From the IMG/VR virus record IMGVR_UViG_3300025769_000044: a stretch of DNA of 33,961 nt. The stretch is one strand, 5' to 3'. Below are positions 2,411-19,141 of the stretch, piece by piece; within the stretch, counting starts at the first letter, position 1; each line of letters opens with the position of its first letter. Position numbers and translations under genes: made by a program. The notes under the pieces are model-generated. The model had not been told where the DNA came from, searched no databases, and saw nothing but the letters and a program-made list of their open reading frames with translations. This stretch comes from a virus.

Positions 2411-2435
2411 GTCCCTGGTGATTGAGTGGTTATTG

Positions 2436-2451: not shown

Positions 2452-2454
2452 ATA

Positions 2455-2473: not shown

Positions 2474-2547
2474 GATTGATATGGGGGGAGGGGGTATGTT
2501 GTAGTGTTGTATTTATGCTGAACCCACACCGACACTAAAAAAAGTAG

Positions 2548-2576
2548 TTGACAAATCAATAAAAATATGCTAGAAT
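2548..2576 (+). promoter_or_regulatory. Sigma70-type promoter P2 (rightward, extended -10)
   Basis: TTGACA (2548-2553), 17-nt spacer ending in TGC, TAGAAT (2571-2576). It is the last promoter before the first rightward gene. Confidence 0.75.
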
Positions 2577-2664
2577 TATGCTTTTGAAGAAAGAGTCTAT
2601 ATAGTCATACTGGACATTCAGTTTCATAGTAATTAATTATTAATAATCATTTATTATTCTTATT

Positions 2665-3198
2665 ATGAATTACTATGAACATTATAACTATATTGACCTA
2701 TATAATGAGTATAGGAAATCAATGGATATCGAACACTCTAAGAATATTGAGGAGGAGTTAAAAGACTCTACTCAAAGCTCAATAGAACAAGAGAAGAAAA
2801 GAACATACGCTACTAAAGCCAAGACTCTCACACCAGTAGGCACTAAAGTAAAGAGAAGACCTGGTAGACCCTCTAAGAAGGAAATGGAGTATGTTGCTCT
2901 CAAAACAAAGAGAAAAAAGAGTTCTCTTGTCTCAAAACGAGAAGAAACACAAAAGATTAGAGAACTTATGGCTAGGATGCTCATTACCAATGGTGACAGG
3001 GTTCTCAAGAAAACAATAGACATAGCCATGACTGATGAACACCCACATCAGATGGCAGCACTGAAGCTACTAATGGATAGAGCATTACCTACTTCTATAT
3101 TTGAAAAAGACAAACAACTAAACAAAGGAATAACAATCAATATATCATCAGCAGCAGAACCAAAACCTATAGTAATAGAGGATTCTGATGGAGCTTGA
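2665..3198 (+). CDS. Putative small terminase / DNA-binding packaging protein (177 aa; 158 aa if ATG 2722 is used)
   Basis: Lies immediately upstream of terL and overlaps it by 11 nt. The protein is basic, with an AT-hook-like RRPGRPSKK. The ATG at 2722 has a better RBS (AGGA-N5) than the one at 2665, which has none. Confidence 0.5.
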   Translation: MNYYEHYNYIDLYNEYRKSMDIEHSKNIEEELKDSTQSSIEQEKKRTYATKAKTLTPVGTKVKRRPGRPSKKEMEYVALKTKRKKSSLVSKREETQKIRELMARMLITNGDRVLKKTIDIAMTDEHPHQMAALKLLMDRALPTSIFEKDKQLNKGITINISSAAEPKPIVIEDSDGA

Positions 3199-4441
3199 TG
3201 TAAAGTTATTATCATGGCAACAGAAGGTATGGAATGACCCTACCAGGTTCAAAGTAGTAGTAGCTGGTAGAAGAACTGGTAAATCCAGACTAGCAGCATG
3301 GTTATTAATTATTAATGCTCTTCAAACTGAGAAAGGTCATGTCTGGTACATAGCCAACACTCAGGGACAGGCTAGAGATGTAATGTGGTCTACTCTTCTT
3401 GAGTTAGGACACCCAGTAGTAGATTCTAGTCATATTAATAATCTACAGATTAAACTCATCAATGGTACTACAATATCATTGAAAGGTGCAGATAGACCAG
3501 AGACAATGCGTGGAGTATCTCTAAAGTTTGTTGTAATGGACGAGTATGGCTCTATGAAGTCAGAGGTATGGGAAACTATTATCAGACCTGCTCTAGCTGA
3601 CCAGAAAGGCTCTGCGTTGTTTATAGGCACACCTTATGGTAGAAACCATTTCTTTGACCTCTTTAACTACGCTAACGATAGCGGTGATTCAGAGTTCAAA
3701 GCATGGCATTTTAATTCTTTTGATAATGATTTACTAGACCCAAAAGAAATAGAAGCAGCTAGGAAGTCAATGTCTAGCTTTGCTTTCAGACAAGAGTTTA
3801 TGGCTTCTTTTGAAGCTGCTAGTGGTGGTTTATTCAAAGAAGACTGGATACAGTATGATGAACAAGAACCAGAAAGAGGTAGATGGTATATAGCTTGTGA
3901 TATTGCAGGATTCTCTGACGTACCTAATGCTAACACTGCTAGGAAAAAAAGATTAGACCACACCGCTATAGCAATAGTAAAAGTAGATGAAGATAGATGG
4001 TGGGTTCATAGTATAGAATATGGTCGATGGAATATTAAGAAGACTGCTTCTAAGATATTTCAAGCAGTAACAGACTTTCAGCCTTTGTGTGTAGGAATAG
4101 AAAAAGGTGTTGGTAAAAATGCAATAATGAGTTACTTGTCAGATATGATGCGTCAATACAACACATACTTCAAATTAGAAGATGTAACTCATGGAAACAA
4201 GAAAAAGATTGATAGAATTACATGGGCATTACAGGGTAGGTTTGAGCATGGTAAGATTACTCTGAATAAAGGAGAATGGAATAAAGAGTTCTTAGATCAG
4301 TTGTTACAGTTTCCTAACCCACAGGTGCATGATGATTTAATAGATGCTTTGTCGTATATCACACAGGTACAGATACCAGAATATACTACATACTATGAAG
4401 AAGAAGAATACGAACCACTAGACATGATAACAGGCTACTAA
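3188..4441 (+). CDS. terL: Terminase large subunit (417 aa)
   Basis: Walker A VVVAGRRTGKS, Walker B KFVVMDEYG, and nuclease-domain acidic motifs YIACDIAG, DHTAIAIV and VHDDLIDAL. Confidence 0.9.
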   Translation: MELDVKLLSWQQKVWNDPTRFKVVVAGRRTGKSRLAAWLLIINALQTEKGHVWYIANTQGQARDVMWSTLLELGHPVVDSSHINNLQIKLINGTTISLKGADRPETMRGVSLKFVVMDEYGSMKSEVWETIIRPALADQKGSALFIGTPYGRNHFFDLFNYANDSGDSEFKAWHFNSFDNDLLDPKEIEAARKSMSSFAFRQEFMASFEAASGGLFKEDWIQYDEQEPERGRWYIACDIAGFSDVPNANTARKKRLDHTAIAIVKVDEDRWWVHSIEYGRWNIKKTASKIFQAVTDFQPLCVGIEKGVGKNAIMSYLSDMMRQYNTYFKLEDVTHGNKKKIDRITWALQGRFEHGKITLNKGEWNKEFLDQLLQFPNPQVHDDLIDALSYITQVQIPEYTTYYEEEEYEPLDMITGY

Positions 4442-4484
4442 GCAGTATACCGTTATGTGTACCACCCCCTAAAAGGAAAACAAT

Positions 4485-6458
4485 ATGTATGATGACAGTA
4501 AAACAGTAAATCCTCTTGTATCCTGGGTACTAGGTCAATGTGACCAATGGAAAGTACACAGAGATACAAACTATCTGGACAAGTGGCAAGAGTATGAAAG
4601 ATTGTTTAGAGGTATCTTTGACCCAGCAGACAAAACCAGAGATTCTGAAAGAGCCAGAATAATCACTCCTGCACTGCAACAAGCAATAGAGTCACACACA
4701 GCAGAAATAGAAGAAGCTGTGTTTGGTAGAGGAGAGAAGTTCTTTGATATTACTGATGATGGTTTTGATCCACAGAAGATTGACATTCAGATGATTCGTA
4801 GTCAGATGATAGAAGACTTCAAGAAGGGTAACGTAAGAAAGTCAATCTCTGATATTATCTTACTATCTGCAATCTATGGTAACGGTATTGGTGAGATTAC
4901 TGTATATGAGAAGAAAGAACTAATACCAGCTATGCAACCAGTAGTAGAGATGGGTATTACAGCAGTAGGAGTACAAGAGAAAACAAGGTTCTGTGTTGGA
5001 CTCAAACCAATCACACCATACAACTTCTTGATAGACCCCTCTGCAAGCAACGTACAGGAGGCTCTAGGCTGTGCTATTGAAGAACTGGTATCTATCCACT
5101 CTGTAGTAGCAGCAATGGAGTCAGGAGTCTATGAGACTGTCTCAGACCTATCTCAGTATGCTATAGAGACTGATTTAGAACCATCACAAGAAGTATCTGA
5201 TTATCAAGAGAACAGAGTTAAGTTGTTAAGATACTATGGACTCATACCAAAGTATATGATAGAGAATCAAGATGATTCAGAAAAGTATGAAGAAGTATTC
5301 AACAAACAAGCAGATGAGTATGGTACTCAAGCAGCAGACTTTAGTGACCTTGTAGAAGGAATAGTAGTCATAGCTAATGAGCAGTATTTACTCAAAGCAG
5401 AAGAGTCACCATACATGATGAAAGATAGACCTATTGTTTCTTTTCAAAATGATAGTGTTCCTAATCGTTTCTGGGGTCGTGGTATTGCTGAGAAGGGCTA
5501 CAATATGCAAAAGGCTATTGATGCTCAAGTGCGTTCACACCTTGACAGCGTAGCACTAGCTACAGTACCTATGATGGCTATGGATGCTACCAGACTACCT
5601 AGAGGTGCTAGGTTTGAAGTAAAACCTGGTAAGACTATTCTTACTAATGGTAATCCAGCAGAGATACTGTATCCATTTAAGATAGGTTCAGTAGATGGCT
5701 CTAATATCAACACTGCTACTTCCTTTATGAATATGCTATTAATGGCTACAGGAACAATAGATAGTTCATCATTACAAGCGATGACTACTGCTGAAGGAGC
5801 AGGATTATCTGTAGCATTATCATCAATCATAAAGAAAAACAAGAGGACATTAATAAACTTTCAAGAACAGTTCTTAATTCCATTTATAACTAAGTCTGCA
5901 CATAGGTTTATGCAGTTTGAACCTGAGAAGTATCCTGCACAAGACTTTGTTTTTATTCCTTCTAGTAATCTTGGTATCATAGCTAGAGAGCATGAGCAGA
6001 TGCAGTTTATGAATTTACTGAAAACACTAGGTGCAGAATCACCAATTGTACCATTAGTTCTATCTGCAATCATAGAAAACTCTAGTTTGAACAACAGAGA
6101 ACAGCTTATACAACAGCTACAGCAGATGATGCAACCTAATCCACAGGAAGCACAGTCACAACAAGCTGCTATACAGCTACAATTACAGAAAGCACAGCTA
6201 GAATTAGCTGATTTACAAGCAGATGTACAGCTAAAACAGGCTAAAGCACAAGGAGAAACGGTAGAAACACAGTTAAAACCAGTAGAAACACAGGCTAAGA
6301 TAGCTGCTAGTGCTTCTAAGTACCTTGGAGACGCAGATGACCCTTCAAAAGAGTTTGAAAGACGTATAAAACTAGCAAATGTGGCTTTAAAAGAGAAAGA
6401 TATAGACACAAAAGCTAGAATTGCAGAATTACAACTACAATCTTCAAGAAATACTTGA
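4485..6458 (+). CDS. Portal (head-tail connector) protein (657 aa)
   Basis: Large ORF directly after terL, with size and position typical of a podovirus portal. The C-terminus is a Gln-rich coiled coil (QQLQQMMQPNPQEAQSQQAAIQLQLQKAQLELADLQ). The call rests on synteny; I could verify no motif by eye. Confidence 0.7.
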   Translation: MYDDSKTVNPLVSWVLGQCDQWKVHRDTNYLDKWQEYERLFRGIFDPADKTRDSERARIITPALQQAIESHTAEIEEAVFGRGEKFFDITDDGFDPQKIDIQMIRSQMIEDFKKGNVRKSISDIILLSAIYGNGIGEITVYEKKELIPAMQPVVEMGITAVGVQEKTRFCVGLKPITPYNFLIDPSASNVQEALGCAIEELVSIHSVVAAMESGVYETVSDLSQYAIETDLEPSQEVSDYQENRVKLLRYYGLIPKYMIENQDDSEKYEEVFNKQADEYGTQAADFSDLVEGIVVIANEQYLLKAEESPYMMKDRPIVSFQNDSVPNRFWGRGIAEKGYNMQKAIDAQVRSHLDSVALATVPMMAMDATRLPRGARFEVKPGKTILTNGNPAEILYPFKIGSVDGSNINTATSFMNMLLMATGTIDSSSLQAMTTAEGAGLSVALSSIIKKNKRTLINFQEQFLIPFITKSAHRFMQFEPEKYPAQDFVFIPSSNLGIIAREHEQMQFMNLLKTLGAESPIVPLVLSAIIENSSLNNREQLIQQLQQMMQPNPQEAQSQQAAIQLQLQKAQLELADLQADVQLKQAKAQGETVETQLKPVETQAKIAASASKYLGDADDPSKEFERRIKLANVALKEKDIDTKARIAELQLQSSRNT

Positions 6459-6483
6459 CTTTTACAAAAAAGTGTGCTATAAT
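6455..6483 (+). promoter_or_regulatory. Sigma70-type promoter P3 (internal, extended -10)
   Basis: aatacTTGACT (the -35 overlaps the portal stop codon), 17-nt spacer ending in TGC, consensus TATAAT (6478-6483). Confidence 0.75.
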
Positions 6484-6512
6484 CACGCAATAATAAAGCA
6501 AAAAACGTGCCA

Positions 6513-6788
6513 ATGGATAAAAAAATATTAAATTACTATGATAACCGTTTTTCAATGATGTCTTCACCAGGTTGGAAAGACTTGATGGAAGATTTACAAA
6601 AAATGTATGATGAATACAAAAGTGTTCAGAACTGTGAAACTAGTGAAGATTTTCATTTTGCTAAAGGACAGGTAGATATACTAAAGTATATGTTAGGGTT
6701 AAAAAATATGTCTGAAAAGGTATATGAAGATTTATGTGCAGAAGAAGAAGCACACCCTAATGAAGACTTAATGTATGTGAACACATAA
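6513..6788 (+). CDS. Hypothetical protein (91 aa from ATG 6513; the track starts at GTG 6507)
   Basis: Open frame just downstream of P3, in the slot between portal and scaffold. No motif recognised. Confidence 0.55.
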   Translation: MDKKILNYYDNRFSMMSSPGWKDLMEDLQKMYDEYKSVQNCETSEDFHFAKGQVDILKYMLGLKNMSEKVYEDLCAEEEAHPNEDLMYVNT

Positions 6789-7051
6789 TGACTAAAAGAA
6801 TATTTGAGTTTCAATGTAAAAATAATTATGTATTTGAGAAATACATTGATGATTCAGTAAAAACAACTAACTGCCCCTCTTGTAATGCTGAAGCTAAACG
6901 CATAATCAGCAAACCAAGAATAGACCTAGATGGTTGTTCAGGTGACTTCCCCACTGCATCAGATGCGTGGGTTAGACGTAGAGAGAGTCATATGAAGTAT
7001 GAAAGAAAAGTGGGTATAGGTCAAGAGTATAGTAGTATGGGACAAGGTTAG
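6788..7051 (+). CDS. Small zinc-ribbon-like protein (87 aa)
   Basis: FEFQCKNNYVFEKYIDDSVKTTNCPSCNAEAKRIIS resembles FmdB-type zinc-ribbon proteins. TAATG start/stop coupling with the upstream ORF. Confidence 0.5.
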   Translation: MTKRIFEFQCKNNYVFEKYIDDSVKTTNCPSCNAEAKRIISKPRIDLDGCSGDFPTASDAWVRRRESHMKYERKVGIGQEYSSMGQG

Positions 7052-7104
7052 ACCCCCATTCAAAGTGTCTTTCCTAAAATGTCAACTGACACAGGAGAGT
7101 AATA

Positions 7105-7866
7105 GTGGCTGAGTTTGTAGAAGAAATAGAAGATAAGAAAGAAGAACCACAGCAAGAAGAAGTAAAAGCTGAAGAAGTTAAAACAGAAGTAGAGATTCCT
7201 GAGAAGTATAAGGAGAAAACTCTTCAAGAAGTTATATCTATGCACCAACAAGCTGAGAAGTTAATAGGCAGACAAGGTACAGAGTTAGGAGAACTTCGTA
7301 GGGTTGCTAATTCTTATGTTCAAAGTCAACCACAAACAAAGCAAACAGAACCAGAAGAATCTAATGATGATGATTTTTTTGCTAACCCTAAACAGGCTGT
7401 AGACAAGGCAATACAAAATCACCCTAAGATTAGACAAGCAGAACAGTTAACCCAAGAGATGCAGAGGTCTAAAGCTCTTTCGTCACTGAAAGAAAAACAT
7501 CCAGACTTTACTGATGTAGTAAAAGATCAAGGGTTTCAGGACTGGGTAAATAATTCTAAAGTAAGAGCAGAGTTATTTATGAGGGCTGATCGTAGGTATG
7601 ATTATGATGCTGCTGACGAGCTTATTTCTACATGGAAAGAAAAGAGACAGGTAGGTAGTAAAACTGTAGAGATGGAGAAACAAGCTAGGTCACAAGACAT
7701 TAAGAGTGCTACTACAACTGTAGCAAGCGGTAGCGGAGAAGCACCATCAAAGAAAATCTTTAGACGTTCTGATATACGAAATCTTATTAACAGTGATCCT
7801 AACAAGTACGAATCTATGTTGCCAGAGATTGAAAAAGCACATAGAGAAGGAAGAGTTAGAGGATGA
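7105..7866 (+). CDS. Putative scaffolding protein (253 aa, GTG start)
   Basis: Acidic, helix-prone and low-complexity (EEIEDKKEEPQQEEVKAEEVKTEVE...). It lies between portal and major capsid. AGGAGA-N6-GTG. Confidence 0.6.
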   Translation: MAEFVEEIEDKKEEPQQEEVKAEEVKTEVEIPEKYKEKTLQEVISMHQQAEKLIGRQGTELGELRRVANSYVQSQPQTKQTEPEESNDDDFFANPKQAVDKAIQNHPKIRQAEQLTQEMQRSKALSSLKEKHPDFTDVVKDQGFQDWVNNSKVRAELFMRADRRYDYDAADELISTWKEKRQVGSKTVEMEKQARSQDIKSATTTVASGSGEAPSKKIFRRSDIRNLINSDPNKYESMLPEIEKAHREGRVRG

Positions 7867-7889
7867 TATTTTAGAAAAGGAATTTTAAA

Positions 7890-8816
7890 ATGGGTTTAGG
7901 TACTAATCATGTAATTAATTCAGAAGTCAATACCGCAGGTTTTATACCTGAGATTTGGTCGGATGAAATTATCGCTGGTTACAAGAAGAATCTTGTAGCT
8001 GCTAACTTAATTAAAACAATGAACATGAAGGGTAAGAAAGGTGATGTAGTTCACTTTCCTGCTCCTGCTCGTGGTGCAGCAACAACTAAAGCTGCTGAAA
8101 CAGAAGTTACTCTTATTCAAGAGTCTGGTACAGAAAAGACTGTAACAATTAACCAACACTATGAGTATAGTCGTTTGATTGAAGACTTTGCTGAAGTACA
8201 GGCATTGAGTTCACTAAGACGTTTCTACACAGATGATGCTGGTTATGCGTTAGCTACTAGAGTAGATACAGATGTATTATCTTTAGGTAGACAGTCACAG
8301 GCTGGTTCTGGTAGTGCTGCTTATGACAAAGGCTTCTTAGGAGGTGATGGTTCTACATTTTATGTAGCTGCTAGTAATAACGAAAGTGCTATTACTGATG
8401 CAGGATTTAGAAGAGCTATCCAGCGTCTTGACGATCAAGATGTTCCTATGGATAATCGTAACTTTGTTATCCCACCTGTAGCTAGAAACGTAATGATGGG
8501 TCTATCACGATTCACAGAACAAGCATTTACAGGTGAAGCTGGTAATGCTAACACTATTAGAAATGGTCAGATTGGTGACATATATGGTATTAAGGTATAT
8601 GTATCTACTAATGTAGACACAACTAACGGTTCTGGTGCTGCTAGAGTATGTTTGTTATTCCATCCTGAGTTTGGAGTATTAGTTGAGCAACTTGGTGTTC
8701 GTGTTCAAACACAATACAAGCAAGAGCATTTAGGTACACTTTTAACTGCTGATACCTTATATGGTACTGGTGAGCTAAGAGATACATCTGCTGTTGCACT
8801 TGTTGTCCCAGCTTAA
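7890..8816 (+). CDS. Major capsid protein (308 aa)
   Basis: Follows the scaffold-like gene, has an AAGGA RBS, and is followed at once by a strong intrinsic terminator. Size and composition fit a podovirus major capsid protein. The call rests on synteny. Confidence 0.75.
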   Translation: MGLGTNHVINSEVNTAGFIPEIWSDEIIAGYKKNLVAANLIKTMNMKGKKGDVVHFPAPARGAATTKAAETEVTLIQESGTEKTVTINQHYEYSRLIEDFAEVQALSSLRRFYTDDAGYALATRVDTDVLSLGRQSQAGSGSAAYDKGFLGGDGSTFYVAASNNESAITDAGFRRAIQRLDDQDVPMDNRNFVIPPVARNVMMGLSRFTEQAFTGEAGNANTIRNGQIGDIYGIKVYVSTNVDTTNGSGAARVCLLFHPEFGVLVEQLGVRVQTQYKQEHLGTLLTADTLYGTGELRDTSAVALVVPA

Positions 8817-8826
8817 TTTTAATAAC

Positions 8827-8858
8827 AGGGTTGGCTCTAGTAGTCAACCCTTTTCTTT
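8827..8858 (+). terminator. Rho-independent terminator after the capsid gene
   Basis: 9-bp stem gggttggct/agtcaaccc (8828-8836 with 8842-8850, one G-T pair), 5-nt loop, then ttttcttt. Confidence 0.85.
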
Positions 8859-9193: not shown

Positions 9194-9216
9194 AGCCCTC
9201 TTCGGAGGGTTTTTTA
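9194..9216 (+). terminator. Rho-independent terminator (UUCG tetraloop)
   Basis: agccctc-ttcg-gagggtt followed by tttttt. Confidence 0.85.
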
Positions 9217-9780: not shown

Positions 9781-10544
9781 CAACCATTTTAACTAAGAAG
9801 AAAGACTCATCAGGAGTACCAGCTACCGCTGATATCACTAGTGCTGTTGGAGGAGCAGAATTAGCAGTTAATACTGCTGATAAAAGATTATATACAAAGA
9901 ATAGTAGTAATGTTATTGTAGAAGTAGGTACAAACCCAGCAGCATTAAACTTAAATGCAGATTTAACAAACACATCAGGTAACTTAGTAGTAGACCCTGC
10001 AACACAAGTGTTTGAGATAAAAGGTGATGGTTCTTCAGCAGAAGGACAAATACAGTTAAATTGTCATGCTAACACACATGGTCAAAAGTTAAAAGCACAA
10101 GATCATTCTCTTAGTGCTACAAATACAATGTTACTACCTTTAGGTGCTGATTCTACGTTAGTATCTGAGGTAGGTACAGCTACGCTAACAAACAAAACTT
10201 TTGATGTTGTTAATGATGCAGACGGTAATTTAAGAGATATACCATTAAGTACTAAAGTTTCAGGAGCTTATACATTAGCCATAGGAGATGCAGGTAATCA
10301 AGTTACAGTAAACTCAGCAAATGTTGTAATAACTGTTCCTACAGGAGTATTTGCAGTAGGTGACATTGTATCAGTTATATCAGTAAATGGATGTACAGCA
10401 TCATTAGCTTGTACTGCTGTTAATGCAGTCAAGGCAGGAGATTTAGCAGCAACTGCTTTGCATACACTAGATGCAAATGGAGTTGCTAGTATCATGTTTA
10501 GTTATTCAGCAGACTTAGCTGTTCTTACTGGGAATATTTCATAA
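9777..10544 (+). CDS. Tail fibre protein (255 aa)
   Basis: The N-terminus ...GGAELAVNTADKRLYTKNSSNVIVEVG... and the motif IQLNCHANTHGQKLKAQDHSLSATNTMLLPLG are typical of phage fibre proteins. ATGA overlap with the upstream ORF. Confidence 0.6.
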   Translation: MTTILTKKKDSSGVPATADITSAVGGAELAVNTADKRLYTKNSSNVIVEVGTNPAALNLNADLTNTSGNLVVDPATQVFEIKGDGSSAEGQIQLNCHANTHGQKLKAQDHSLSATNTMLLPLGADSTLVSEVGTATLTNKTFDVVNDADGNLRDIPLSTKVSGAYTLAIGDAGNQVTVNSANVVITVPTGVFAVGDIVSVISVNGCTASLACTAVNAVKAGDLAATALHTLDANGVASIMFSYSADLAVLTGNIS

Positions 10545-11389
10545 TGACTGGAATACATCAATTATTATTTTCTAATTTTGGCGATAAAAACCCTTTTGAT
10601 GGAACAATCGTAACTTTTACTGGAACTCAAAACTACACAATACCATCAGGCATAACATCAGTCGATTTTGTCATAGTTGCTGCTGGAGGCGGAGGAGGAC
10701 GAAACGGGGGTGGAGCTGGCGCTGGGGGAATGCGTGAAGGCACTAAAGCAGCAGGAACGCAATTATCTGTCAATCCTGGTCAAACATATACTGTAACTGT
10801 TGGAGGCGGAGGGTCTGGCGCACAAACAAGAACAGGTTCAAACGGGGGTAACTCAACTTTTTCAACCATTACTTCTGCTGGGGGCGGAGGAGGTGGTGGT
10901 CATGCTGGTGGAAGCAGTGAAAATGCTGCGGATGGAGGATCTGGAGGTGGAGCAGATTCGCAGGGAGGGACTAAGGGTGATGGTAACGAGCCTAATGTTA
11001 GTCCAAGTCAAGGAAATAACGGAGGCACCGGAGGAAATTCTGGTGGTAACTTTATGTCTGGAGGAGGCGGTGGAATAAATGCTGTTGGAACGAATGGCTC
11101 TTTTTCTGGCACCATAAAAGCTGGAAATGGCGGGGCTGGCAAAGCTAATGTAATCACTAGCACTGTTTTTGCTGGAGGTGGCGGAGGCGGAGCTGGCGGT
11201 AGTTCTACCTCTTCTCACTTGGGACTAGGAGGTACCGGAGGTGGTGGAAGTGCTCAACTTGGGGATGTAGGGCAAGCAGGGACAGAAAACACCGGAGGAG
11301 GAGGGGCCGGAGGTGGGTACGATGGCTCTAATCATATGGCAGGCGGCAATGGTGGAAAAGGTATAGTGATTTTACGATTAAATGCTTAA
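10544..11389 (+). CDS. Glycine-rich fibre/receptor-binding-type protein (281 aa)
   Basis: The N-terminus is YTIPSGITSVDFVIVAAGGGGGRNGGGAGAGG, followed by many GGGG runs, and it ends NGGKGIVILRL. This is the pattern of the phage glycine-rich domain family. ATAATG coupling. Confidence 0.6.
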   Translation: MTGIHQLLFSNFGDKNPFDGTIVTFTGTQNYTIPSGITSVDFVIVAAGGGGGRNGGGAGAGGMREGTKAAGTQLSVNPGQTYTVTVGGGGSGAQTRTGSNGGNSTFSTITSAGGGGGGGHAGGSSENAADGGSGGGADSQGGTKGDGNEPNVSPSQGNNGGTGGNSGGNFMSGGGGGINAVGTNGSFSGTIKAGNGGAGKANVITSTVFAGGGGGGAGGSSTSSHLGLGGTGGGGSAQLGDVGQAGTENTGGGGAGGGYDGSNHMAGGNGGKGIVILRLNA

Positions 11390-11990: not shown

Positions 11991-12110
11991 ATGTACGGCA
12001 TGATGAAAGGCAAGAAGAAACCAATGAAAAACGGTATGAATAAAGGTTATGGTGGTAAGAAGATGATGGCTAAGAAGCCAATGAAGAAGCCAGCTAAGAG
12101 AAAAGCATAA
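11991..12110 (+). CDS. Lys/Met-rich mini-protein (39 aa; below the track cutoff)
   Basis: Hand translation gives MYGMMKGKKKPMKNGMNKGYGGKKMMAKKPMKKPAKRKA. AAGGAGAAG RBS 4 nt upstream. The stop overlaps the next ATG (TAATG). Confidence 0.45.
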   Translation: MYGMMKGKKKPMKNGMNKGYGGKKMMAKKPMKKPAKRKA

Positions 12111-12295
12111 TGGCTAAAGGCGTAGCTCACTACTTTAGAGATGGTAAAGAATATAAAGGCAAGATGCACAAAATGCCTAATGGTGATATGCACTCTGGTG
12201 CAACACATAACAAGTCTAGTAAAAAACTTTTTCATCTTAAAGAACTTTCTAAAACAGCACAAAAGAGGGCTAAAAGTGGCAGCAAAAAAGTCTAA
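12110..12295 (+). CDS. Basic mini-protein (61 aa)
   Basis: MAKGVAHYFRDGKEYKGKMHKMPNGDMHSGATHNKSSKKLFHLKELSKTAQKRAKSGSKKV, with His/Lys-rich motifs. Coupled to the upstream ORF. Confidence 0.55.
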   Translation: MAKGVAHYFRDGKEYKGKMHKMPNGDMHSGATHNKSSKKLFHLKELSKTAQKRAKSGSKKV

Positions 12296-12437
12296 GAAAT
12301 CTCCTACACCTACTAACAAGGCTCTGTATAACAGAGTAGTAGCAGAGGCAAAACGTAAGTTTGATAAATGGCCTTCAGCTTATGCTTCAGGGTACGTTGT
12401 ACGTCAATATAAGAAGAAAGGTGGAGGTTACGCATAA
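12276..12437 (+). CDS. Basic mini-protein (53 aa from GTG 12276; the track extends it to 12141)
   Basis: AGAGGG-N6-GTG gives VAAKKSKKSPTPTNKALYNRVVAEAKRKFDKWPSAYASGYVVRQYKKKGGGYA. The track's N-terminal 45 aa overlap the previous ORF and look non-coding. Confidence 0.5.
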   Translation: MAAKKSKKSPTPTNKALYNRVVAEAKRKFDKWPSAYASGYVVRQYKKKGGGYA

Positions 12438-12518
12438 ATGGGTTTAGTTATGTTTTTTATAATTGTTGTTATACCTGTAGGAGTTGCTTACTATGTCACT
12501 AAAAGAATGGTTTGGTAA
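12438..12518 (+). CDS. Possible 26-aa hydrophobic peptide (below the track cutoff)
   Basis: Hand translation gives MGLVMFFIIVVIPVGVAYYVTKRMVW. The ATG abuts the upstream TAA, and the ORF overlaps the next ORF's start. Confidence 0.25.
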   Translation: MGLVMFFIIVVIPVGVAYYVTKRMVW

Positions 12519-12780
12519 AGGCAAGAAAGGTGACTGGGTAGATATAGGAGCACCTAAGAAGAAAGGTAAGTTTCAGGCTTGTGGTCGTAAGTCTACTAAA
12601 GATAGTAAAAGAGCCTATCCTAAATGTGTACCTAGGTCTAAAGCTAAGAGTATGACAGAAGCACAAAGAAAGTCTGCTGTAAGAAGAAAGAGAGCAGCAG
12701 GTAATACAGGTGGTAAACCTACCAATGTAAGAACATTTGCAAGGAAGAAAAATGGTTCAAAAAAAGTATCAAAATCCTAA
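12493..12780 (+). CDS. Basic mini-protein (95 aa from ATG 12493; the track starts at TTG 12484)
   Basis: AGGAG-N9-ATG gives MSLKEWFGKGKKGDWVDIGAPKKKGKFQACGRKSTKDSKRAYPKCVPRSKAKSMTEAQRKSAVRRKRAAGNTGGKP... Confidence 0.6.
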   Translation: MSLKEWFGKGKKGDWVDIGAPKKKGKFQACGRKSTKDSKRAYPKCVPRSKAKSMTEAQRKSAVRRKRAAGNTGGKPTNVRTFARKKNGSKKVSKS

Positions 12781-13006
12781 AGGTGGTCTTAATGAAGCTG
12801 GTAGAAAGTATTTTAAAAGAACTACAGGTGCTAACTTAAAACCACCAGTATCAAGAAAGAAAGCAAAGAAGTCACCCAAGGAAGCATCTAGGCGTAAGAG
12901 TTTCTGTGCTAGGATGCAAGGAATGAAAAAGAAAAGAACAGGTAGTAAAACTGCTAATGATCCTAATAGTAGGATTAATAAAGCACTAAGAAAATGGGAT
13001 TGCTAA
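12752..13006 (+). CDS. Basic mini-protein (84 aa from ATG 12752; the track starts at TTG 12737)
   Basis: AAGGAAG RBS. MVQKKYQNPKGGLNEAGRKYFKRTTGANLKPPVSRKKAKKSPKEASRRKSFCARMQGMKKKRTGSKTANDPNSRINKALRKWDC. Overlaps the previous ORF by 29 nt in the +1 frame. Confidence 0.6.
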   Translation: MVQKKYQNPKGGLNEAGRKYFKRTTGANLKPPVSRKKAKKSPKEASRRKSFCARMQGMKKKRTGSKTANDPNSRINKALRKWDC

Positions 13007-13672
13007 ATGGCACTTACAACTACATATTTAGATTTAGTAAATGATGTACTGGTTAGGCTCAGAGAAGCCCAAGTAACCAGTGTGTCTCAGAATGGGTATT
13101 CTTCTTTGATAGGTGCTTTAGTTAATGACGCTAAAAGAGAAACAGAAGACGCATGGAATTGGGATGTACTAAGAAGTACAGTATCGTTTACGACACAACA
13201 AGGCACATTTAACTACAACTTAGATGGTGCTAGGAACAAGTTTAGAATTATCTCTGCACATAATGATACAGAAGATGTATTTTTACGTTATCAAACATCA
13301 TCATACTTTATACAAAGTTTGTTGTTAACTGACACACCTACACAGGGAGCACCGTTATACTATAATCCTAATGGTGTAGACCCTGACAGAGATGGGCAAA
13401 TAGATTTATATCCTATTCCTGATGGTGATTATGTAATAAGGTTTGACTTAGTTATACCTGAAGAAGAACTAACAACTGATACAGACACCACTGCTATACA
13501 AAAGAATATAATTACATCTTTAGCATGGGCTAAAGCAATAGAAGAACGTGGTGAAGATGGAGGTATCAGTGTATCAAGTCAGTACGCAGTAGCTAAACAG
13601 GCTTTAGGAGATGCTATAGCTATAGAAGCTGCAAGAAGACCTGATGAAGAAACAGTGTGGTATCCTTCATAA
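13007..13672 (+). CDS. Putative head-tail adaptor / tail tubular protein A (221 aa)
   Basis: Size and position relative to the next large ORF match T7 gp11/gp12 order. The N-terminus LDLVNDVLVRLRE...LVNDAKRETEDAWNWDVL is adaptor-like. Confidence 0.5.
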   Translation: MALTTTYLDLVNDVLVRLREAQVTSVSQNGYSSLIGALVNDAKRETEDAWNWDVLRSTVSFTTQQGTFNYNLDGARNKFRIISAHNDTEDVFLRYQTSSYFIQSLLLTDTPTQGAPLYYNPNGVDPDRDGQIDLYPIPDGDYVIRFDLVIPEEELTTDTDTTAIQKNIITSLAWAKAIEERGEDGGISVSSQYAVAKQALGDAIAIEAARRPDEETVWYPS

Positions 13673-15294
13673 TGCCTAACAAACCTATACAACCAGTAGC
13701 AATAACATCACCAGGCTTCTTTGGTATTAACACACAAGACTCTGGTGTAACTCTTGACTTGTCATTTACATTAGAAGCAGATAATGCTGTGATTGATAAG
13801 TCTGGTAGAATGGCTGCTAGAAGAGGTTGGGAGTATCAAACAACTGCTGGTGGTACATCTACACTACCAGAGTGTATGGTAGAGTTTGATAATTATACAG
13901 CTACAGGATCACATACTATTATTAGTGGTGGTGATGAAAAGTTGTATAGAGGTGAAACTAGTATGTCTGCTATGCCTGTATATAATACTAACGCTAATGC
14001 AACAATTACATATACCATATCAGATAACAACTGGCAGTTTAAACAAGCAGAGTTTGAAAGCGGTACTAATTTTAGTCCACATATGTATGCAGTGCAAAAA
14101 GGTCATCCTACTTTAGTATACCATAAGTTACCTGTAGGTGGTGGTGGAGGTGGTAGTCATGCACACACAGGAGACTTTGGACTACAAAGACTAGGAGATG
14201 TAGGTAATGTACCTTCTGGATATGCAACAGATACATTTACACCTAATGTAGCACTATCAGCTTTTGGTAGAATGTGGATGGCTAATATAGTAAATGATCC
14301 ATTAACAATATACCACAGTGTATTACTAGACGGTTCAGACTTTAGTGGTTCTGGTTCAGGACAGTTAAATTTAGAGAAAGTTGTACCTGGTGGTGATAAG
14401 ATAACAGCACTGGCTGCACATAATAACTTTCTAGTAATATTCTGTGAACATCACATTGTATTATATCAAAATGCAGATGATGTAAGTAACATATCATTGA
14501 ATGATGTAATCGTAGGCACAGGTTGTATTGCAAGAGACTCTGTACAAGTTATAGGTACTGATTTAGTATTTCTATCTGATAGTGGTCTAAGAAGTCTAGG
14601 TAGAACCATACAAGAGAAGTCAGCACCACTAAGAGACTTGTCAAAGAATGTAAGAGATAACTTTCTTTCTCTTGTAGCAGTAGAGAGCAAAGATGAGATA
14701 AGAAGTATATACTATGAGAAGGAAGCATTTTATTTACTAACTTTACCAGCTTCAGGTTTTACATTTTGTTTTGATGTAAGAGCAACACTACCTGATGGTT
14801 CATACAGAATAACTAGATGGGATAGTATAGACCCATCATCATTAGCGGTAACAAATGATAACAGGTTACTGTTAGGACAACCTAATGGTATAGCACAGTA
14901 TAAAAACTTTACTGATGGTGGTTCTAGTTATGTATTTAGTTATTTATCACCATACTTAGACTTTGGTAATCCTGCTGTAACTAAGATACCTAAAAAGATT
15001 AATGTAACAGTCATAGGTGCTATTAATACTACATTAGCTTTAAAATGGGCTTTTGATTATGAAAACAGTTTTAATAATGCTGATGTACAAACAAAAGAAG
15101 GAAACATTGCTGAGTATGGTACAGCAGAATACAATGTAGCAGAATATTCAGCTTCTGTATTTATTGACAAACTTAGTACACAATTATCAGGAAATGGTAC
15201 TATTTTACAAGTAGGAGTAAACGCATCAATAGATAGTAACCCTCTATCACTACAAAAGATAGATATTTATTCAGTTCTAGGAAGGACTATATAA
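13672..15294 (+). CDS. Putative tail nozzle / tail tubular protein B (540 aa from ATG 13672; the track starts at GTG 13657)
   Basis: TAATG coupling to the adaptor-like gene. Large beta-rich protein in the gp12-equivalent position. Confidence 0.5.
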   Translation: MPNKPIQPVAITSPGFFGINTQDSGVTLDLSFTLEADNAVIDKSGRMAARRGWEYQTTAGGTSTLPECMVEFDNYTATGSHTIISGGDEKLYRGETSMSAMPVYNTNANATITYTISDNNWQFKQAEFESGTNFSPHMYAVQKGHPTLVYHKLPVGGGGGGSHAHTGDFGLQRLGDVGNVPSGYATDTFTPNVALSAFGRMWMANIVNDPLTIYHSVLLDGSDFSGSGSGQLNLEKVVPGGDKITALAAHNNFLVIFCEHHIVLYQNADDVSNISLNDVIVGTGCIARDSVQVIGTDLVFLSDSGLRSLGRTIQEKSAPLRDLSKNVRDNFLSLVAVESKDEIRSIYYEKEAFYLLTLPASGFTFCFDVRATLPDGSYRITRWDSIDPSSLAVTNDNRLLLGQPNGIAQYKNFTDGGSSYVFSYLSPYLDFGNPAVTKIPKKINVTVIGAINTTLALKWAFDYENSFNNADVQTKEGNIAEYGTAEYNVAEYSASVFIDKLSTQLSGNGTILQVGVNASIDSNPLSLQKIDIYSVLGRTI

Positions 15295-15530
15295 TGAGTA
15301 ATTATTCAAAAACAACTAACTTCGCAGCAAAGGATACGTTAAACAGTGGAGATCCAAACAAAATCGTTAAAGGAACAGAGATTAATACTGAATTTGATAA
15401 TATTGCTACAGCAGTTACGACGAAAGCTGATAGTGCCTCCCCAGCGGTGACAGGCACAGCAACCATTACAAATGTTGTACTATCAGGTACATTATCTGGT
15501 GGTTCAATAGAGGGAGGGTCATACTCATGA
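15294..15530 (+). CDS. Small fibre-like module protein (78 aa)
   Basis: TNFAAKDTLNSGDPNKIVKGTEINTEFDNIATAV is a typical fibre N-terminal motif. The C-terminus IEGGSYS matches the C-terminus of the 9232..9780 product. Confidence 0.55.
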   Translation: MSNYSKTTNFAAKDTLNSGDPNKIVKGTEINTEFDNIATAVTTKADSASPAVTGTATITNVVLSGTLSGGSIEGGSYS

Positions 15531-17926
15531 GTATCCTAGATGCTTACAAAATGTTTCAAGAACAGCAACTTGCACAAGGCATAGACCCTTCTGTTGCTCC
15601 TAGATTAACACAACAAGAACAAAATGCAATGAGGTTAGCTGCTACGTCTCCAGAACCCACCACAGCCTCCCAATCGCCCTCTGAAGACGTTAGTAGCACT
15701 GGTATGCTTACAGAGACAAGAGAGCGGTCACAGGCTCGTGAGAGCGTTACAGACGATACTACGTCTTATGAACAAAGAGTTAATAATCTTAGAGATGAAT
15801 TTAAAGCACAATATAATGTATTAGAAGCAAGAGGATTTGATTATGTAAATCCTAGTGATTTAGACTATATTATAGAAGAACAAGCTAAAGAGTTTGCTAA
15901 AGCTGGTGTAGATAGTATATATGACTTAGGTAAAAGAAGTGTAGATACAACTAGACAAAATGTAGAAGTAGAAAGAATTGCTGATCCTAATACTGGTAAT
16001 TTTAAATATTATTACAGTGAAGAACCTACTACCGCAATGGGAGTTGGTAAAAGAATAGAAGTACAACCTAGCACTGTTAAGGAAGTAGACACAGGTAGAT
16101 CTTTAGGTCAAGGAGCTACAGAAAAGATGTATATAGCAACTCTACCTAGTTCTATGGATGAGTTGTTCAATAAGAAAACAGGAGAAACAGTAGACGTATT
16201 TGCAGGTGGTGGCACATTACGCAGTGGAGGTGAAGAGTCTACATCCTTTGGTAATTTGTATACAGGTATAGAAGGTGGTGCAGACTTAAATGTTAAGTTT
16301 GTTGGAGACCAACCTATTTTCTATCCTTTGTATCAAGATACCTCTGATAAAAATTTAGTAACATTTGCTACAATAGCTACTACTTTAGCAGGAGGTGCTT
16401 ATGCCCCTGAAATAGGAAGTTTTATTACTGGTGGTAACGCAACTGGAACAGCAGCTACTGCTATAGGTAATGCTGTGGTAGCAGGAAGCACTAGTTTAGC
16501 ACTAGGAAGAGATCTAGAAGATTCTTTACTTGCTGCCATTATGGCTTATGGTGTAACCTATGGTGTAGATGCTTTACAATCAGGTAAGTTTGGTGATTAT
16601 TTAGTTGATAATAATATACTAGAAGCAGACACAGTAGACAGTTTAGGTATAAATAGAGGTAATTCTTTATCAGGACTAGGTGAAGGAGTTACTACTGATC
16701 TTTTATCAAGAACTGAAGAAATATATCCTGCACCTGGCGGTTTTACACAAGTAGCTGATGCTGTTCCTTCTTTTGTAGAGCCACAGTTTGGTAGTCTAGG
16801 TGATTCTTTATCAGGAATAGGTGAAGGAGTTACTACTGGATTAGGTGTTCCATCATTAGATCAATCAAAAACATTTGCTGATTTAACTAGTGATTTACCT
16901 TTATTAACTGGCGGAGAAGTAGGTATTGATGCTACTACTGGTGGTTTAACTATTACTGATGCAAATAGTGCTACAAAAGCAGTAGATGATATTATAAAAG
17001 CAGCAGGTGCAGGTGTTGTAGGAAAAGAAGCATTAGAAGAGGTAGTAGAAGAAGCTAGTAAATTTATTGACTTAAAAGAAGTGTTTGGTGAAGATGTAGG
17101 TGGTTTTCTGGAAGGAGCAGTAGGAACTGGTATAGACTTTGCTAAACTAGAAGAAATAAGAAAAAGACTAGAAGGTAGAGGTGAAGACATAGCAGGAGAG
17201 TTTGCTGATTTATTTAAACCTTATACAGTTAGAAGCGGTTTAGGAGTAAGTGAGATAACTCCTGAAGGAGCTACTTCTACTGCTGATGTAGCATATCAAC
17301 CACTAAGAGAGAGTTACTTAGAGAGTGCTACACAGTTAGCAGGACAGATACCAAGCACTAGAGAAGAAGCTGCACAGTCTTTGTTTGCTGATATATCAAG
17401 ACTATCAGAACCACAAAGAGCAAGAGAACAAGAAAGATTGTTAGGTACACTAGCACAGAGAGGTTTGCTAGGTTATGGTCAGACTATGCCAACTGTAGGT
17501 GGTGAACGTAGAGTTAGTCCATTAGCTGAGTCACTCTTTGCTGCACAAGAAGCAGGTAGAGCAAAAGAGTCACTAGCAGCTACGCAGTTTGGAACAACAG
17601 AAGCAGACAGACTTGCACAACTTAGTGGCAGACTTACAGGTGCTGCACAATCTATAGATAAGTTACCATTAGATCAATTAGCAACAGCACAAAATATAGC
17701 TTATACGTTAGGACAAGTACCAGCTAGAGAAGGTTTAAGAACTAAATCGCAGTTTGAACAACTAGGAGCGCAAGCAGAGATTGCAGGTTTAACAGAGTTG
17801 GGAGACTTTGGTAAAGGTTTATTTGGTTTAGAAACTGACCCTGGTAATGTCCCTATTAGCGGAGAAAGAAAGTATAGTGCAGAAGAAGTTAGAAAAATTT
17901 TAGAAGCAGTAGGAATAACTGGATAA
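15527..17926 (+). CDS. Internal virion / ejection protein candidate (799 aa)
   Basis: Large ORF after the tail-tube genes (T7 gp14-16 position). Gly/Ala-rich hydrophobic segment ATIATTLAGGAYAPEIGSFITGGNATGTAATAIGNAVVAGS. Contains an internal 47-aa repeat. Confidence 0.5.
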   Translation: MSILDAYKMFQEQQLAQGIDPSVAPRLTQQEQNAMRLAATSPEPTTASQSPSEDVSSTGMLTETRERSQARESVTDDTTSYEQRVNNLRDEFKAQYNVLEARGFDYVNPSDLDYIIEEQAKEFAKAGVDSIYDLGKRSVDTTRQNVEVERIADPNTGNFKYYYSEEPTTAMGVGKRIEVQPSTVKEVDTGRSLGQGATEKMYIATLPSSMDELFNKKTGETVDVFAGGGTLRSGGEESTSFGNLYTGIEGGADLNVKFVGDQPIFYPLYQDTSDKNLVTFATIATTLAGGAYAPEIGSFITGGNATGTAATAIGNAVVAGSTSLALGRDLEDSLLAAIMAYGVTYGVDALQSGKFGDYLVDNNILEADTVDSLGINRGNSLSGLGEGVTTDLLSRTEEIYPAPGGFTQVADAVPSFVEPQFGSLGDSLSGIGEGVTTGLGVPSLDQSKTFADLTSDLPLLTGGEVGIDATTGGLTITDANSATKAVDDIIKAAGAGVVGKEALEEVVEEASKFIDLKEVFGEDVGGFLEGAVGTGIDFAKLEEIRKRLEGRGEDIAGEFADLFKPYTVRSGLGVSEITPEGATSTADVAYQPLRESYLESATQLAGQIPSTREEAAQSLFADISRLSEPQRAREQERLLGTLAQRGLLGYGQTMPTVGGERRVSPLAESLFAAQEAGRAKESLAATQFGTTEADRLAQLSGRLTGAAQSIDKLPLDQLATAQNIAYTLGQVPAREGLRTKSQFEQLGAQAEIAGLTELGDFGKGLFGLETDPGNVPISGERKYSAEEVRKILEAVGITG
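16662..16838 (+). repeat. Intragenic direct repeat: two 36-nt copies 141 nt apart
   Basis: attctttatcagga[c/a]taggtgaaggagttactactg at 16662-16697 and 16803-16838, identical at 35 of 36 positions. It encodes SLSG[LI]GEGVTT. Confidence 0.9.
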
Positions 17927-17938
17927 AGGATAAAAGAT

Positions 17939-19132
17939 ATGATGGATGTAATGAAAGGATTATTTGCTAGTGATAGACCTACTGGTGCAACAGTCAGAAG
18001 AAGAACACCTGCTGTAAGGCAAAGTAGTCCTATAGGTGCTATTAGCGGTATGATAGAAGAAGCCAGAGGTGATCTATCTAGTAGCATTAGAGGTTTGTTT
18101 GGACAACAAACACCAGAAGAAGCACAAGCACAAGAGTTGCAAGAGATAAAAACAGCTTATACAGATGCTGTATTAGGTGTTGGTGACCCTAATACACCAG
18201 AGGGATTAAAAGAGGTAGCTAGAAAATTAAATAATAATCCTAACCCTAATATACAGATGGTAGGAGTAAGACTAAACCAACAAGCTGCTATACTAGAAGA
18301 AAAACGAAAAGTAGCTCAGAGAACGGCTAGAAAAGAAGAATTAAATATTGACAAATTAGAAAAAGAAATAGACACAATAGGCATACCGACACCAAACGTA
18401 TTATCAGATTCAGATATGTTAATTGCACAAGAATTAGGAATACCTACTAAGGATAAGTTTGATAATCCTAGAGACATCACTAGCTATACACAAGAAGAAT
18501 CAAGGGCTATATTGAAAAAGAAAGAAGAGCGACAGACAAGTATAGCAAAAGCTGCGTCTGGTAAATTTAATGACATAACAATGAAAGAAGTAGTTAATTT
18601 TAAAAAATCTTTTGGTTTAGACTTTGAAGGTGATGCAGTTAGTAGCCTAGAGTCAATAAATCAAATTGAAAGTTTTTTACAAAACGCTCCTGCATCAGGT
18701 TTAGGGGGCACTATAATTCCTCAGTTACAAAGAGCTTTTATTAAACTGGCAGAAGGTTCTTCAGCAAGAGTGTCTGATAAAGACGTAGAAAACATTTTAG
18801 GAGTAGAAAATTTTGTTGATACACAAGTAAGTTCGTTAGAAAAATTTATAGGTGGTAAGCTATCAAGTAAAAAAATACAGTCTTTAAAAGAACTTACTGA
18901 GCTTTATAAAAAACAGGCTATTAAAAGTTATAATAGAAGAGTAAAAGTAGCTAAAGAAGATGTAAATAGAGTAGCTTTTAATAAGAATAAAAAAGATTCT
19001 TTAATTAATAGTATTCCTCCTGTTGAATTTTATTTAAAAAGTCCTACAGAGTCAACTCCAGTAGAACAAACAGAAGTAATATTAAAAGAAATAGAAGGTG
19101 TTGGTACAGTAAGAATAAAAAAATTCAAATAA
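17939..19132 (+). CDS. Internal virion / ejection protein candidate (397 aa)
   Basis: AAGGA RBS. The call rests on position only. Confidence 0.45.
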   Translation: MMDVMKGLFASDRPTGATVRRRTPAVRQSSPIGAISGMIEEARGDLSSSIRGLFGQQTPEEAQAQELQEIKTAYTDAVLGVGDPNTPEGLKEVARKLNNNPNPNIQMVGVRLNQQAAILEEKRKVAQRTARKEELNIDKLEKEIDTIGIPTPNVLSDSDMLIAQELGIPTKDKFDNPRDITSYTQEESRAILKKKEERQTSIAKAASGKFNDITMKEVVNFKKSFGLDFEGDAVSSLESINQIESFLQNAPASGLGGTIIPQLQRAFIKLAEGSSARVSDKDVENILGVENFVDTQVSSLEKFIGGKLSSKKIQSLKELTELYKKQAIKSYNRRVKVAKEDVNRVAFNKNKKDSLINSIPPVEFYLKSPTESTPVEQTEVILKEIEGVGTVRIKKFK

Positions 19133-19141
19133 GGAATAGTA

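Follow-up and report, generated by a model that had tools for sequence, protein, structure and literature searches.

Introduction

The closest described counterparts of the cluster of five small, lysine-rich genes that we analysed in IMG/VR virus record IMGVR_UViG_3300025769_000044 (a marine podovirus-like genome of 33,961 bp with 36.6% GC, analysed at its full length and hereafter called the window) are the T4-GC119 proteins of cyanobacterial myoviruses. These proteins are lysine-rich and uncharacterised, are encoded in the late region and contain basic linkers, and each is one chain of 270–990 amino acids (aa) that includes homologues of three of the window proteins, designated D, C and E. 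The modules follow each other in the order D-like, DUF5872-like (C), CW (a module with the pattern CWxGY...C) and C-terminal DUF6321 (E). Four-module chains are found in phages RB11-B (XYR95929, 427 aa), S-SM1 (SSM1_115, 495 aa), Syn9 (gp114, 443 aa) and S-SCSM1 (ORF29, 517 aa), and SSSM7_236 of phage S-SSM7 also belongs to T4-GC119. Another counterpart is present in the T7-like cyanophage P-SCSP1a, whose genes PSCSP1a_00014 and PSCSP1a_00015 have the major capsid gene on one side and tail tubular gene A on the other, a slot equivalent to that of the window cluster. Together they encode an 84-aa DUF6321 protein, 61% identical to the window's E protein, and a 58-aa protein with 36% lysine plus arginine (K+R). 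DUF6321, DUF5872 and PHROG families 23735, 4689, 727 and 3477 are all catalogue entries without an assigned function. Our literature searches returned no paper on DUF6321, and DUF5872 came up only once, listed in passing for the genome of a giant virus.

The window differs from both of these systems. Instead of one protein ordered D-C-CW-E, it has five genes in the order A-B-C-D-E (A39, B61, C53, D95 and E84, named with their lengths in aa), and it belongs to a small podovirus with an SU10-type portal, whereas T4-GC119 comes from cyanobacterial myoviruses. The CW module of T4-GC119 was not detected in the window by tblastn (best E 0.15), while A and B of the window never occur in the fused T4-GC119 proteins. 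P-SCSP1 is a T7-type phage with two such genes only and without homologues of B, C and D. Its DUF6321 gene and basic gene in the equivalent slot nonetheless contradict a first-pass annotation of the window, according to which T7-type podoviruses have no equivalent block. As judged by sequence comparison, the window cluster is a split ('exploded') form of a shuffling, modular lysine-rich family common in aquatic phages, and what is new here is a split variant of a catalogued but functionally blank family.

Five conserved basic genes

The first-pass annotation had described five small ORFs (open reading frames) of 39, 61, 53, 95 and 84 aa in which about a quarter to a third of the residues are K or R. 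All five are present (Table 1), and the measured K+R fractions of A, B, C, D and E are 0.38, 0.26, 0.26, 0.33 and 0.32, that is 26–38%, with isoelectric points (pI) of 10.3–11.2. None of the other 37 predicted proteins of the window exceeds a K+R fraction of 0.21, and the structural neighbours have pI values of 4–5. Merely 9 of the 269 stop-free segments of at least 39 aa in all six frames reach a K+R fraction of 0.26, so the composition is far from the chance output of a genome with 36.6% GC. The translational coupling described earlier was also confirmed, as starts and stops share a base or overlap. Placement in the late structural operon held up as well: no terminator-like site was found on the + strand from 9211 to the nozzle gene, and the cluster therefore shares a late unit with the fibre-like, adaptor and nozzle genes.

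The five-gene block is kept in related genomes. In the metagenomic relatives L003–L007, it consists of proteins of 42–43, 57–61, 49–65, 95 and 81 aa and lies directly 5' of an SU10-type adaptor; the capsid and adaptor proteins of these relatives are 80–84% identical to those of the window. The starts assigned to D and E are backed by relatives, whose proteins begin with MSLKEW (D) and MVQKKYQ (E). We compared the window with two relatives and obtained ratios of nonsynonymous to synonymous substitution rates (dN/dS) of 0.21–0.49 for B, 0.09–0.41 for C, 0.15–0.21 for D and 0.13–0.28 for E, alongside 0.11–0.15 for the adaptor and 0.11–0.18 for the major capsid protein. B to E are under purifying selection, and the five ORFs are real, conserved genes.

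Split and fused forms in aquatic phages

Homologues of DUF6321 were found in 542 phage records, mostly those of T4-like cyanomyoviruses and also those of pelagiphages, Methylophilales phages and cyanopodoviruses. The fused form makes up at least 8000 clusters at 90% identity. When C53, D95 and E84 were searched by blastp, 120–121 of 124 T4-GC119 homologues were matched at the expected positions (121 of 124 for C53). E84 is 44–59% identical to the C-terminal DUF6321 module of T4-GC119, and D95 is 32–38% identical to the D module. A metagenomic protein of 288 aa, P0481, likewise has D, DUF5872 and DUF6321 in a single chain. We further collected 42 loci from metagenome-assembled genomes (MAGs) and single-amplified genomes (SAGs); in about 15 of them modules lie within 1.5 kb of each other, and their order is shuffled. 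Roseophage CRP-207 carries a string of tiny basic genes with homologues of C and B together with an A-like peptide. Separate and fused forms thus both exist, which agrees with the earlier belief that the modules occur in other marine phages, sometimes fused. C, D and E are joined in T4-GC119, and B is a stand-alone protein among its best 120 homologues. A and B are further small basic partners that travel with the C, D and E modules.

A cellular origin of the modules was considered and rejected, as the 42 loci are nearly all either MAG or SAG contigs from unrelated taxa or contigs of phage size, and none gave evidence for a host gene. The long-contig locus that was examined (L030) is a prophage with lysozyme and integrase genes. 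At positions 2701–8176 of this locus, on a 1.05-Mb contig of a Ca. Salivita marina MAG, an E-C-D cluster lies between the lysozyme and the integrase genes; the modules therefore also occur in temperate phages. Two other DUF6321-bearing contigs, from a Prochlorococcus SAG (L039) and a Synechococcus MAG (L053), measure 189 and 194 kb, the size of a cyanomyovirus genome; although filed under cyanobacterial genomes, they probably stem from phages in infected cells or from faulty binning.

Families and predicted folds of C53, D95 and E84

According to the structure models and conservation patterns, C, D and E are small folded mini-domains with disordered polybasic tails or linkers, not mere low-complexity peptides. 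C53 matches Pfam DUF5872 (PF19197) with an E of 4.2e-10 and 40.7 bits (cut-off 27.5), but only at profile positions 1–38 of 116, so that it corresponds to an N-terminal sub-module and not to the full domain; larger relatives match positions 1–102. Its pattern is LY.RV..EAK+KFD.WPSAYASG..V+.YKK.GG.Y. Two positions of the C module are occupied either by Cys/Cys or by Tyr/Tyr, one sequence having Trp/Tyr, and none of the 20 unique sequences mixes the two types. The modules compared include those of the window gene (12276–12437), L016 (4618–5001) and L012 (3945–5228), and the register was checked by eye. The paired swap implies that the two positions touch within a folded hairpin, and suggests a helix-helix contact that would be stapled by a disulfide in some lineages.

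D95 matches phrog_23735 over its full length (E 8.4e-28, residues 3–86 on profile positions 4–81 of 81) and no Pfam family. The family comprises at least 1800 clusters at 90% identity, with 669 representatives at 50% identity, and has the core L.eWF...gDWVdI....G...C.....PKC....A..M....+.SA..RK+A....gKP.NV.T, followed by a K-rich tail. Two Cys and two Trp are invariant in D. In the AlphaFold2 (AF2) model, residues 11–30 and 41–70 have a predicted local distance difference test score (pLDDT) of 70–81 and form a small sheet and two helices, and residues 71–95 are predicted to be disordered. A sequence-profile search of D95 against the PDB gave nothing at E <= 10. Foldseek searches with the D95 and E84 models gave nothing significant in the PDB (best E 5–8, template modelling score below 0.3), and in BFVD the D95 model matched only uncharacterised relatives.

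E84 belongs to Pfam DUF6321 (PF19846), which it matches with an E of 5.4e-24 and 85.1 bits (cut-off 28.5) at profile positions 2–72 of 72. It also matches the C-termini of several larger PHROG families. The pattern is GGLN..GR...R.TG.NLK.P ... R+.SFCARM.G ... AL+.W.C-stop, and residues G11, G12, L13, G17, R18, S50, F51, C52, A53, R54, M55, W82 and C84 are invariant in E84 and 47 fused homologues. The AF2 model predicts residues 41–84 to be helical (pLDDT 82–89) and the basic linker, residues 25–39, to be disordered. No NCBIfam family matched any of the five window proteins or the S-SM1 fusion. The invariant Cys pairs of D and E, together with the Cys/Tyr swap in C, would fit mini-domains that have to stay folded outside the reducing cytoplasm.

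The minor-groove motifs of SPKK type that had been read into these proteins do not hold: A–E contain no [ST]P[KR][KR], and the stretches concerned are SPTP in C53 and SPKE in E84. A single SPKK occurs in one relative only (L007). Outside close relatives the motif is not conserved, and P-SCSP1, HTVC035P and the fused homologues all lack the linker.

A39, B61 and the 26-aa reading frame

A39, the first gene of the cluster, encodes a peptide rich in K, M, G and P, with 38% K+R and no acidic residues, and it has no matches in Pfam, PHROG or NCBIfam. Counterparts of similar size and composition (MPxGKG..KKPMKK) stand at the same place in L004 and L007, A-like peptides precede B in L021 and L022, and others occur in CRP-207 (gp67), L032 and L035. 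What is conserved in A is thus its place, its size and its K/M/P/G composition, and very little of its sequence: identity to relatives is 50–53% over 32 alignable codons with a saturated synonymous rate (dS), and dN/dS between L004 and L007 is 0.19. As its conservation is mainly compositional, A has the weakest case among the five for being a folded protein.

B61 is rich in His and Lys and has the motif HYF+DG..KG..HK...G..HSG..H..SK.L.H..ELSKTA, in which four His are invariant across 4 sequences. More than 1000 clusters of homologues of 55–80 aa were found in marine metagenomes, and homologues are also present in the Roseobacter phages CRP-207 and CRP-902. B61 has no match among the curated families of Pfam, PHROG and NCBIfam. 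A relationship to DUF6496 (PF20106), considered on account of a look-alike MH.F..G.L.SG stretch in a protease fusion, was rejected, as hhalign gave a probability of 0.4% and Pfam no match at E <= 1.

A sixth possible ORF of 26 aa, hydrophobic, had also been listed in the first-pass annotation, and it did not survive comparison. The 55-nt insertion between C and D in which it lies is missing from L003, L004, L005, L007 and L017, five relatives of which one has a D protein 96% identical to that of the window; for this reason the ORF is not counted as a gene. Neither Pfam nor PHROG families matched it, and from the sequence comparison it is probably not a gene. In the relatives without the insertion, the C stop and the D start overlap as TAATG. 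The insertion is flanked by the near-repeat GGAGGTTACGCAT / GGAGTTGCTTACT and breaks this coupling.

Virion evidence and fusions to enzymes

Evidence from purified particles exists for the fused form. In Table S8 of Sullivan et al. 2010, the T4-GC119 row reads 'Structural protein', 'Y', '13', 'NP', '-', '-' and 'NP' (PMC3037559), which we interpret as 13 peptide counts obtained by mass spectrometry (MS) from purified S-SM1 virions and as absence of the gene from S-PM2 (PMC3037559). The gene lengths in the row, 1488, 1332 and 2985, equal those of SSM1_115, Syn9 gp114 and SSSM7_236, and the identification is therefore secure. For S-SCSM1, 45 virion proteins were reported by MS of CsCl-purified particles (PMC9602691). 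ORF29 of this phage is labelled 'virion protein', the basis being its GenBank product name and not a per-protein MS table.

Some relatives are joined to enzymes. In P0487, a Peptidase_S78 prohead protease is followed by D, DUF5872 and CW in one chain, and on 7 contigs its gene lies between a portal(+MuF) gene and the next head gene. P0483 combines D and DUF5872 with the catalytic core of a topoisomerase IB (E 3.4e-20), and its gene directly follows that of an XkdF-type protease fusion, with a DUF6321 gene and a capsid-like gene coming next. P0492 has a sub-threshold match to PARP and is a possible ADP-ribosyltransferase. The work of prohead proteases takes place within the procapsid and that of topoisomerases on DNA, so that the two fusions hint at the interior of the head and at DNA, respectively. 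At the P0483 locus (L068), two large head-module proteins (665–2422 and 2425–4548, the latter P0483) have a repeated GD[YFK]PGHPFRGNQ[HW]TGG between their domains, possibly as a linker or as a site of processing. IIDGHHRWAAQ, a stretch reminiscent of ParB/Srx domains, is also present in the first of the two.

A possible role in the head and its rivals

The explanation that we tentatively favour, with somewhat less than even confidence, is that A–E are head-packaged, DNA-associated basic proteins. They would be made late, along with the head and tail proteins, and would enter the head interior most simply by electrostatic binding to DNA during packaging, or else by trapping in the procapsid. 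They would remain in the head as DNA-associated polycations and probably exit together with the genome when a cell is infected. The modules would, in some lineages, serve as a handle that carries an enzyme, such as a prohead protease or topoisomerase IB, into the head. We infer that the stand-alone A–E of this phage would be present in its virion, inside the capsid, where they would bind and condense or neutralise DNA and from which they would be ejected. One A–E set has a net charge of +88 over 332 aa amid structural proteins that are acidic. Other lineages use the same slot, bordered by the capsid gene and by the adaptor or tail-tube A gene: L021/L022 have B there, with the major capsid protein gene on one side and the SU10 adaptor gene on the other, and P-SCSP1a has its DUF6321 and basic genes there.

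Several points weigh against a packaged role. Virion detection concerns the fused form only, the stand-alone A–E being known here from genes alone, and strongly basic proteins can adhere to DNA or to particles while these are being purified. T4-GC119 is encoded by Syn9 but was undetected in the Syn9 virion proteome (PMC3037559). The cryo-electron microscopy (cryo-EM) study of P-SCSP1u (3.2–3.8 Å) reports only capsid, portal, adaptor, nozzle and fibre, with the DUF6321 product unmentioned; this map excludes an ordered position of the product, though not a disordered internal one. To neutralise 10% of the 67,922 phosphates, about 77 copies of each protein would be needed, which makes a bulk condensing role doubtful. 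Moreover, seawater already supplies Mg2+. The fusions to protease and topoisomerase belong to other lineages and are rare, as only 2 were seen when the 150 best representatives of D at 50% identity were inspected. Gene position also varies, as in HTVC023P, HTVC035P, CRP-207, L018 and prophage L030 the modules either neighbour lysis genes or stand last in the late region. In cyanomyoviruses, T4-GC119 is encoded within a hypervariable region, where it follows gp16 or precedes gp17, and this region has also been described as part of a possible mobile cassette. Finally, searches for sequences and folds in the PDB and a scan for SPKK revealed no known DNA-binding fold or motif.

Some of these points would suit an intracellular role equally. 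The proteins might not be packaged at all but act late as nucleoid-associated or histone-like polycations that coat phage or host DNA (or RNA or ribosomes), aiding packaging, protecting replicated DNA or shutting down the host, and their detection in virions would then be carry-over on DNA. The composition fits this role as well as it fits packaging, the Syn9 result, the missing density in P-SCSP1u and the variable position relative to structural genes are all in line with it, and the topoisomerase fusion ties the modules to DNA but not necessarily to the capsid. We nevertheless hold it to be unlikely, given that purified S-SM1 virions yielded the fused form, that its S-SCSM1 homologue carries a virion-protein annotation, that the prohead protease fusion occupies a portal-protease-capsid position, and that in the window lineage, L021/L022 and P-SCSP1 the genes lie between the capsid and adaptor genes. 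The same protease fusion could instead be read as a sign of head assembly, since D, C and CW of P0487 follow the prohead protease at the point where protease-scaffold fusions normally bear the scaffold. Scaffold- or core-like accessories of this kind would nucleate or size the head within the procapsid, or recruit DNA to the portal, and would then be largely expelled or degraded on maturation. Module-bearing genes directly after the protease gene in L068 and L069, and the place of the cluster in the head-to-neck part of the operon, are compatible with such accessories. However, a scaffold-like gene is already present between the portal and capsid genes of the window, the usual scaffold is acidic or helical rather than a polycation with Cys-stapled mini-domains, mature virions contain the fused form, and many homologues are far from head genes, for example beside lysis genes, which together render an assembly role improbable.

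Proximity to lysis genes raises another possibility, that of cationic envelope-active peptides for lysis or entry which, in the manner of the phiKT 'disruptin' or of other proteins resembling antimicrobial peptides, would bind to and disturb the anionic outer membrane or cell surface. Modules are found beside endolysin or peptidase genes and small membrane protein genes in HTVC023P, HTVC035P, CRP-207, L018 and L030, and a gene for a small transmembrane (TM) protein precedes the cluster in the window too. Yet the holin and endolysin genes of the window are 10 kb off (22533–23367), the models indicate conserved folded cores with invariant Cys and Trp and not amphipathic helices, and the same modules occur in virion proteins of 300–1000 aa and in the protease and topoisomerase fusions; we thus assign a lytic role a very small probability. 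It could also be argued that part of the cluster is non-coding, with A39 and the 26-aa ORF as by-products of AT-rich, AAG/AAA-rich sequence. The window-specific insertion that contains the 26-aa ORF and the purely compositional conservation of A, with saturated dS, would accord with this. For A, on the other hand, there are a strong AAGGAG Shine-Dalgarno sequence, a stop coupled to the B start, an ORF of 39–43 aa whose K/M/P/G composition is kept in all relatives, the dN/dS of 0.19 between L004 and L007, and A-like peptides that recur beside B in other lineages, while for B to E the idea is excluded by dN/dS and thousands of homologues. A partly non-coding cluster is therefore quite improbable.

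Genomic context of the cluster

The features of the window are compiled in Table 1. The first-pass annotation had placed the cluster between fibre genes and adaptor/nozzle genes. The latter assignment stands, being based on PHROG matches and on PF24175 (SU10_adaptor), which was found in relatives' adaptors that are 80–82% identical to that of the window; the 'fibre genes', by contrast, are a Gly_rich_2 protein and unannotated ORFs. The product of the gene at 10544–11389, which the earlier reader had called a fibre gene, consists mostly of Gly-rich repeats.

A TM protein of similar size to the one directly 5' of A is encoded at the equivalent place in L004 (5349–5525) and L007 (5367–5540). EF-hand-like membrane proteins are found 5' of the basic genes in L018 (3619–3999) and in CRP-207 (L015, 3870–4226). 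Strong terminator-like hairpins follow the major capsid gene (8827–8851) and the next gene, of 104 aa (9194–9211), which suggests attenuation points that set an excess of capsid protein over the downstream products. The three large ORFs 3' of the nozzle gene gave no match in the PHROG search and, judged by position, probably encode ejection or internal proteins of the window podovirus. Rfam and tRNA scans of the window found nothing. No near-identical DNA was found among sequenced phages, and the window phage is therefore without a close cultured relative.

Table 1. Features of the window and of the basic-gene cluster
Feature	Position	Strand	Remarks
Large terminase	3188–4441		
SU10-type portal	4485–6458		
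Scaffold-like gene, 253 aa	between portal and capsid genes		
Major capsid protein	7890–8816		followed by several unannotated ORFs
Gly_rich_2 protein, 281 aa	10544–11389		Pfam Gly_rich_2, E 7.7e-24
126-aa gene	between Gly_rich_2 gene and 58-aa membrane protein gene		
58-aa protein with C-terminal TM helix	11804–11980	+	directly 5' of A
Basic-gene cluster A–E	11991–13006	+	
A39, 39 aa	11991–12110	+	ATG start; AAGGAG Shine-Dalgarno sequence
B61, 61 aa	12110–12295	+	ATG start; one base in common with TAA of A
C53, 53 aa	12276–12437	+	GTG start; 20-nt overlap with B
26-aa hydrophobic ORF (probably not a gene)	12438–12518	+	inside window-specific 55-nt insertion between C and D
D95, 95 aa	12493–12780	+	ATG start
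E84, 84 aa	12752–13006	+	29-nt overlap with D; stop abuts adaptor ATG at 13007
Adaptor	13007–13672	+	PHROG 'tail protein' match
Nozzle	13657–15294	+	matches head-closure and nozzle-like PHROGs
Three large unannotated ORFs (799, 397 and 898 aa)	15527–21838		3' of nozzle
Holin and endolysin	22533–23367		10 kb from cluster
Replication genes: DNA methylase, ribonucleotide reductase (RNR), DNA polymerase, primase-helicase		opposite	

Implications and comparison with known packaged proteins

The modules are among the commonest uncharacterised genes of ocean phages. They occur in phages of SAR11, Prochlorococcus/Synechococcus and Roseobacter as well as on freshwater MAG contigs, and DUF5872 has been annotated in a giant virus. 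The relation of split and fused forms ties tiny genes, which are often missed by annotation pipelines, to a protein with proteomic evidence, and this link identifies cultured cyanophages, pelagiphages and roseophages as tractable systems. A wider reading, possible in our opinion but doubtful, is that A–E and their thousands of relatives make up a very abundant but so far overlooked class of aquatic-phage proteins, namely polycationic mini-domains that are packaged in the head and bound to DNA. They would be the phage counterpart of the core proteins of adenoviruses and giant viruses: encoded either by one gene or by a row of very small ones, the modules would attach to the genome, in some lineages together with an enzyme such as topoisomerase IB, a protease or a possible ADP-ribosyltransferase, riding into the capsid at packaging and into the host at ejection. 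If the modules are indeed packaged and DNA-bound, the view that the head of a tailed phage contains naked DNA along with a few ejection proteins would have to be revised, a simple handle for protein delivery would be gained, and many 'hypothetical' virion proteins would gain a function.

Membership of A–E in the families of SPKK/H1-type proteins, T4 internal proteins (IPs), polyvalent proteins and disruptins was rejected, as in each case a defining feature that was tested failed. The likeness to adenovirus VII and mu, baculovirus P6.9, protamines and H1-type SPKK proteins, all of which are basic, small, of low complexity and late, is a functional analogy only, with no homology and no canonical SPKK motif linking them to the window proteins. 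These DNA-condensing polycations are mostly Arg-rich and largely unstructured, whereas A–E are Lys-rich with predicted folded cores that contain Cys, Trp and Tyr. To our knowledge, tailed phages are not known to need protein counter-ions. A–E have no sequence or fold similarity to T4 IPI-III or to polyvalent proteins in PHROG, Pfam and the PDB, and no prohead protease was found among the annotated genes of the window. Polyvalent proteins are large chains in which several domains, enzymes among them, are combined and which are encoded with head-morphogenesis genes, whereas the window proteins measure 39–95 aa and include no enzyme. P0487, P0483 and P0492 do fit this type, being relatives of D and C that are fused to a protease, a topoisomerase and a possible ADP-ribosyltransferase in head-gene contexts. 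What A–E would share with T4 IPI-III and the polyvalent or MuF-linked cargo, as we take these to be from general knowledge of the literature, is the proposed principle of a protein that resides inside the head and is delivered with the DNA.

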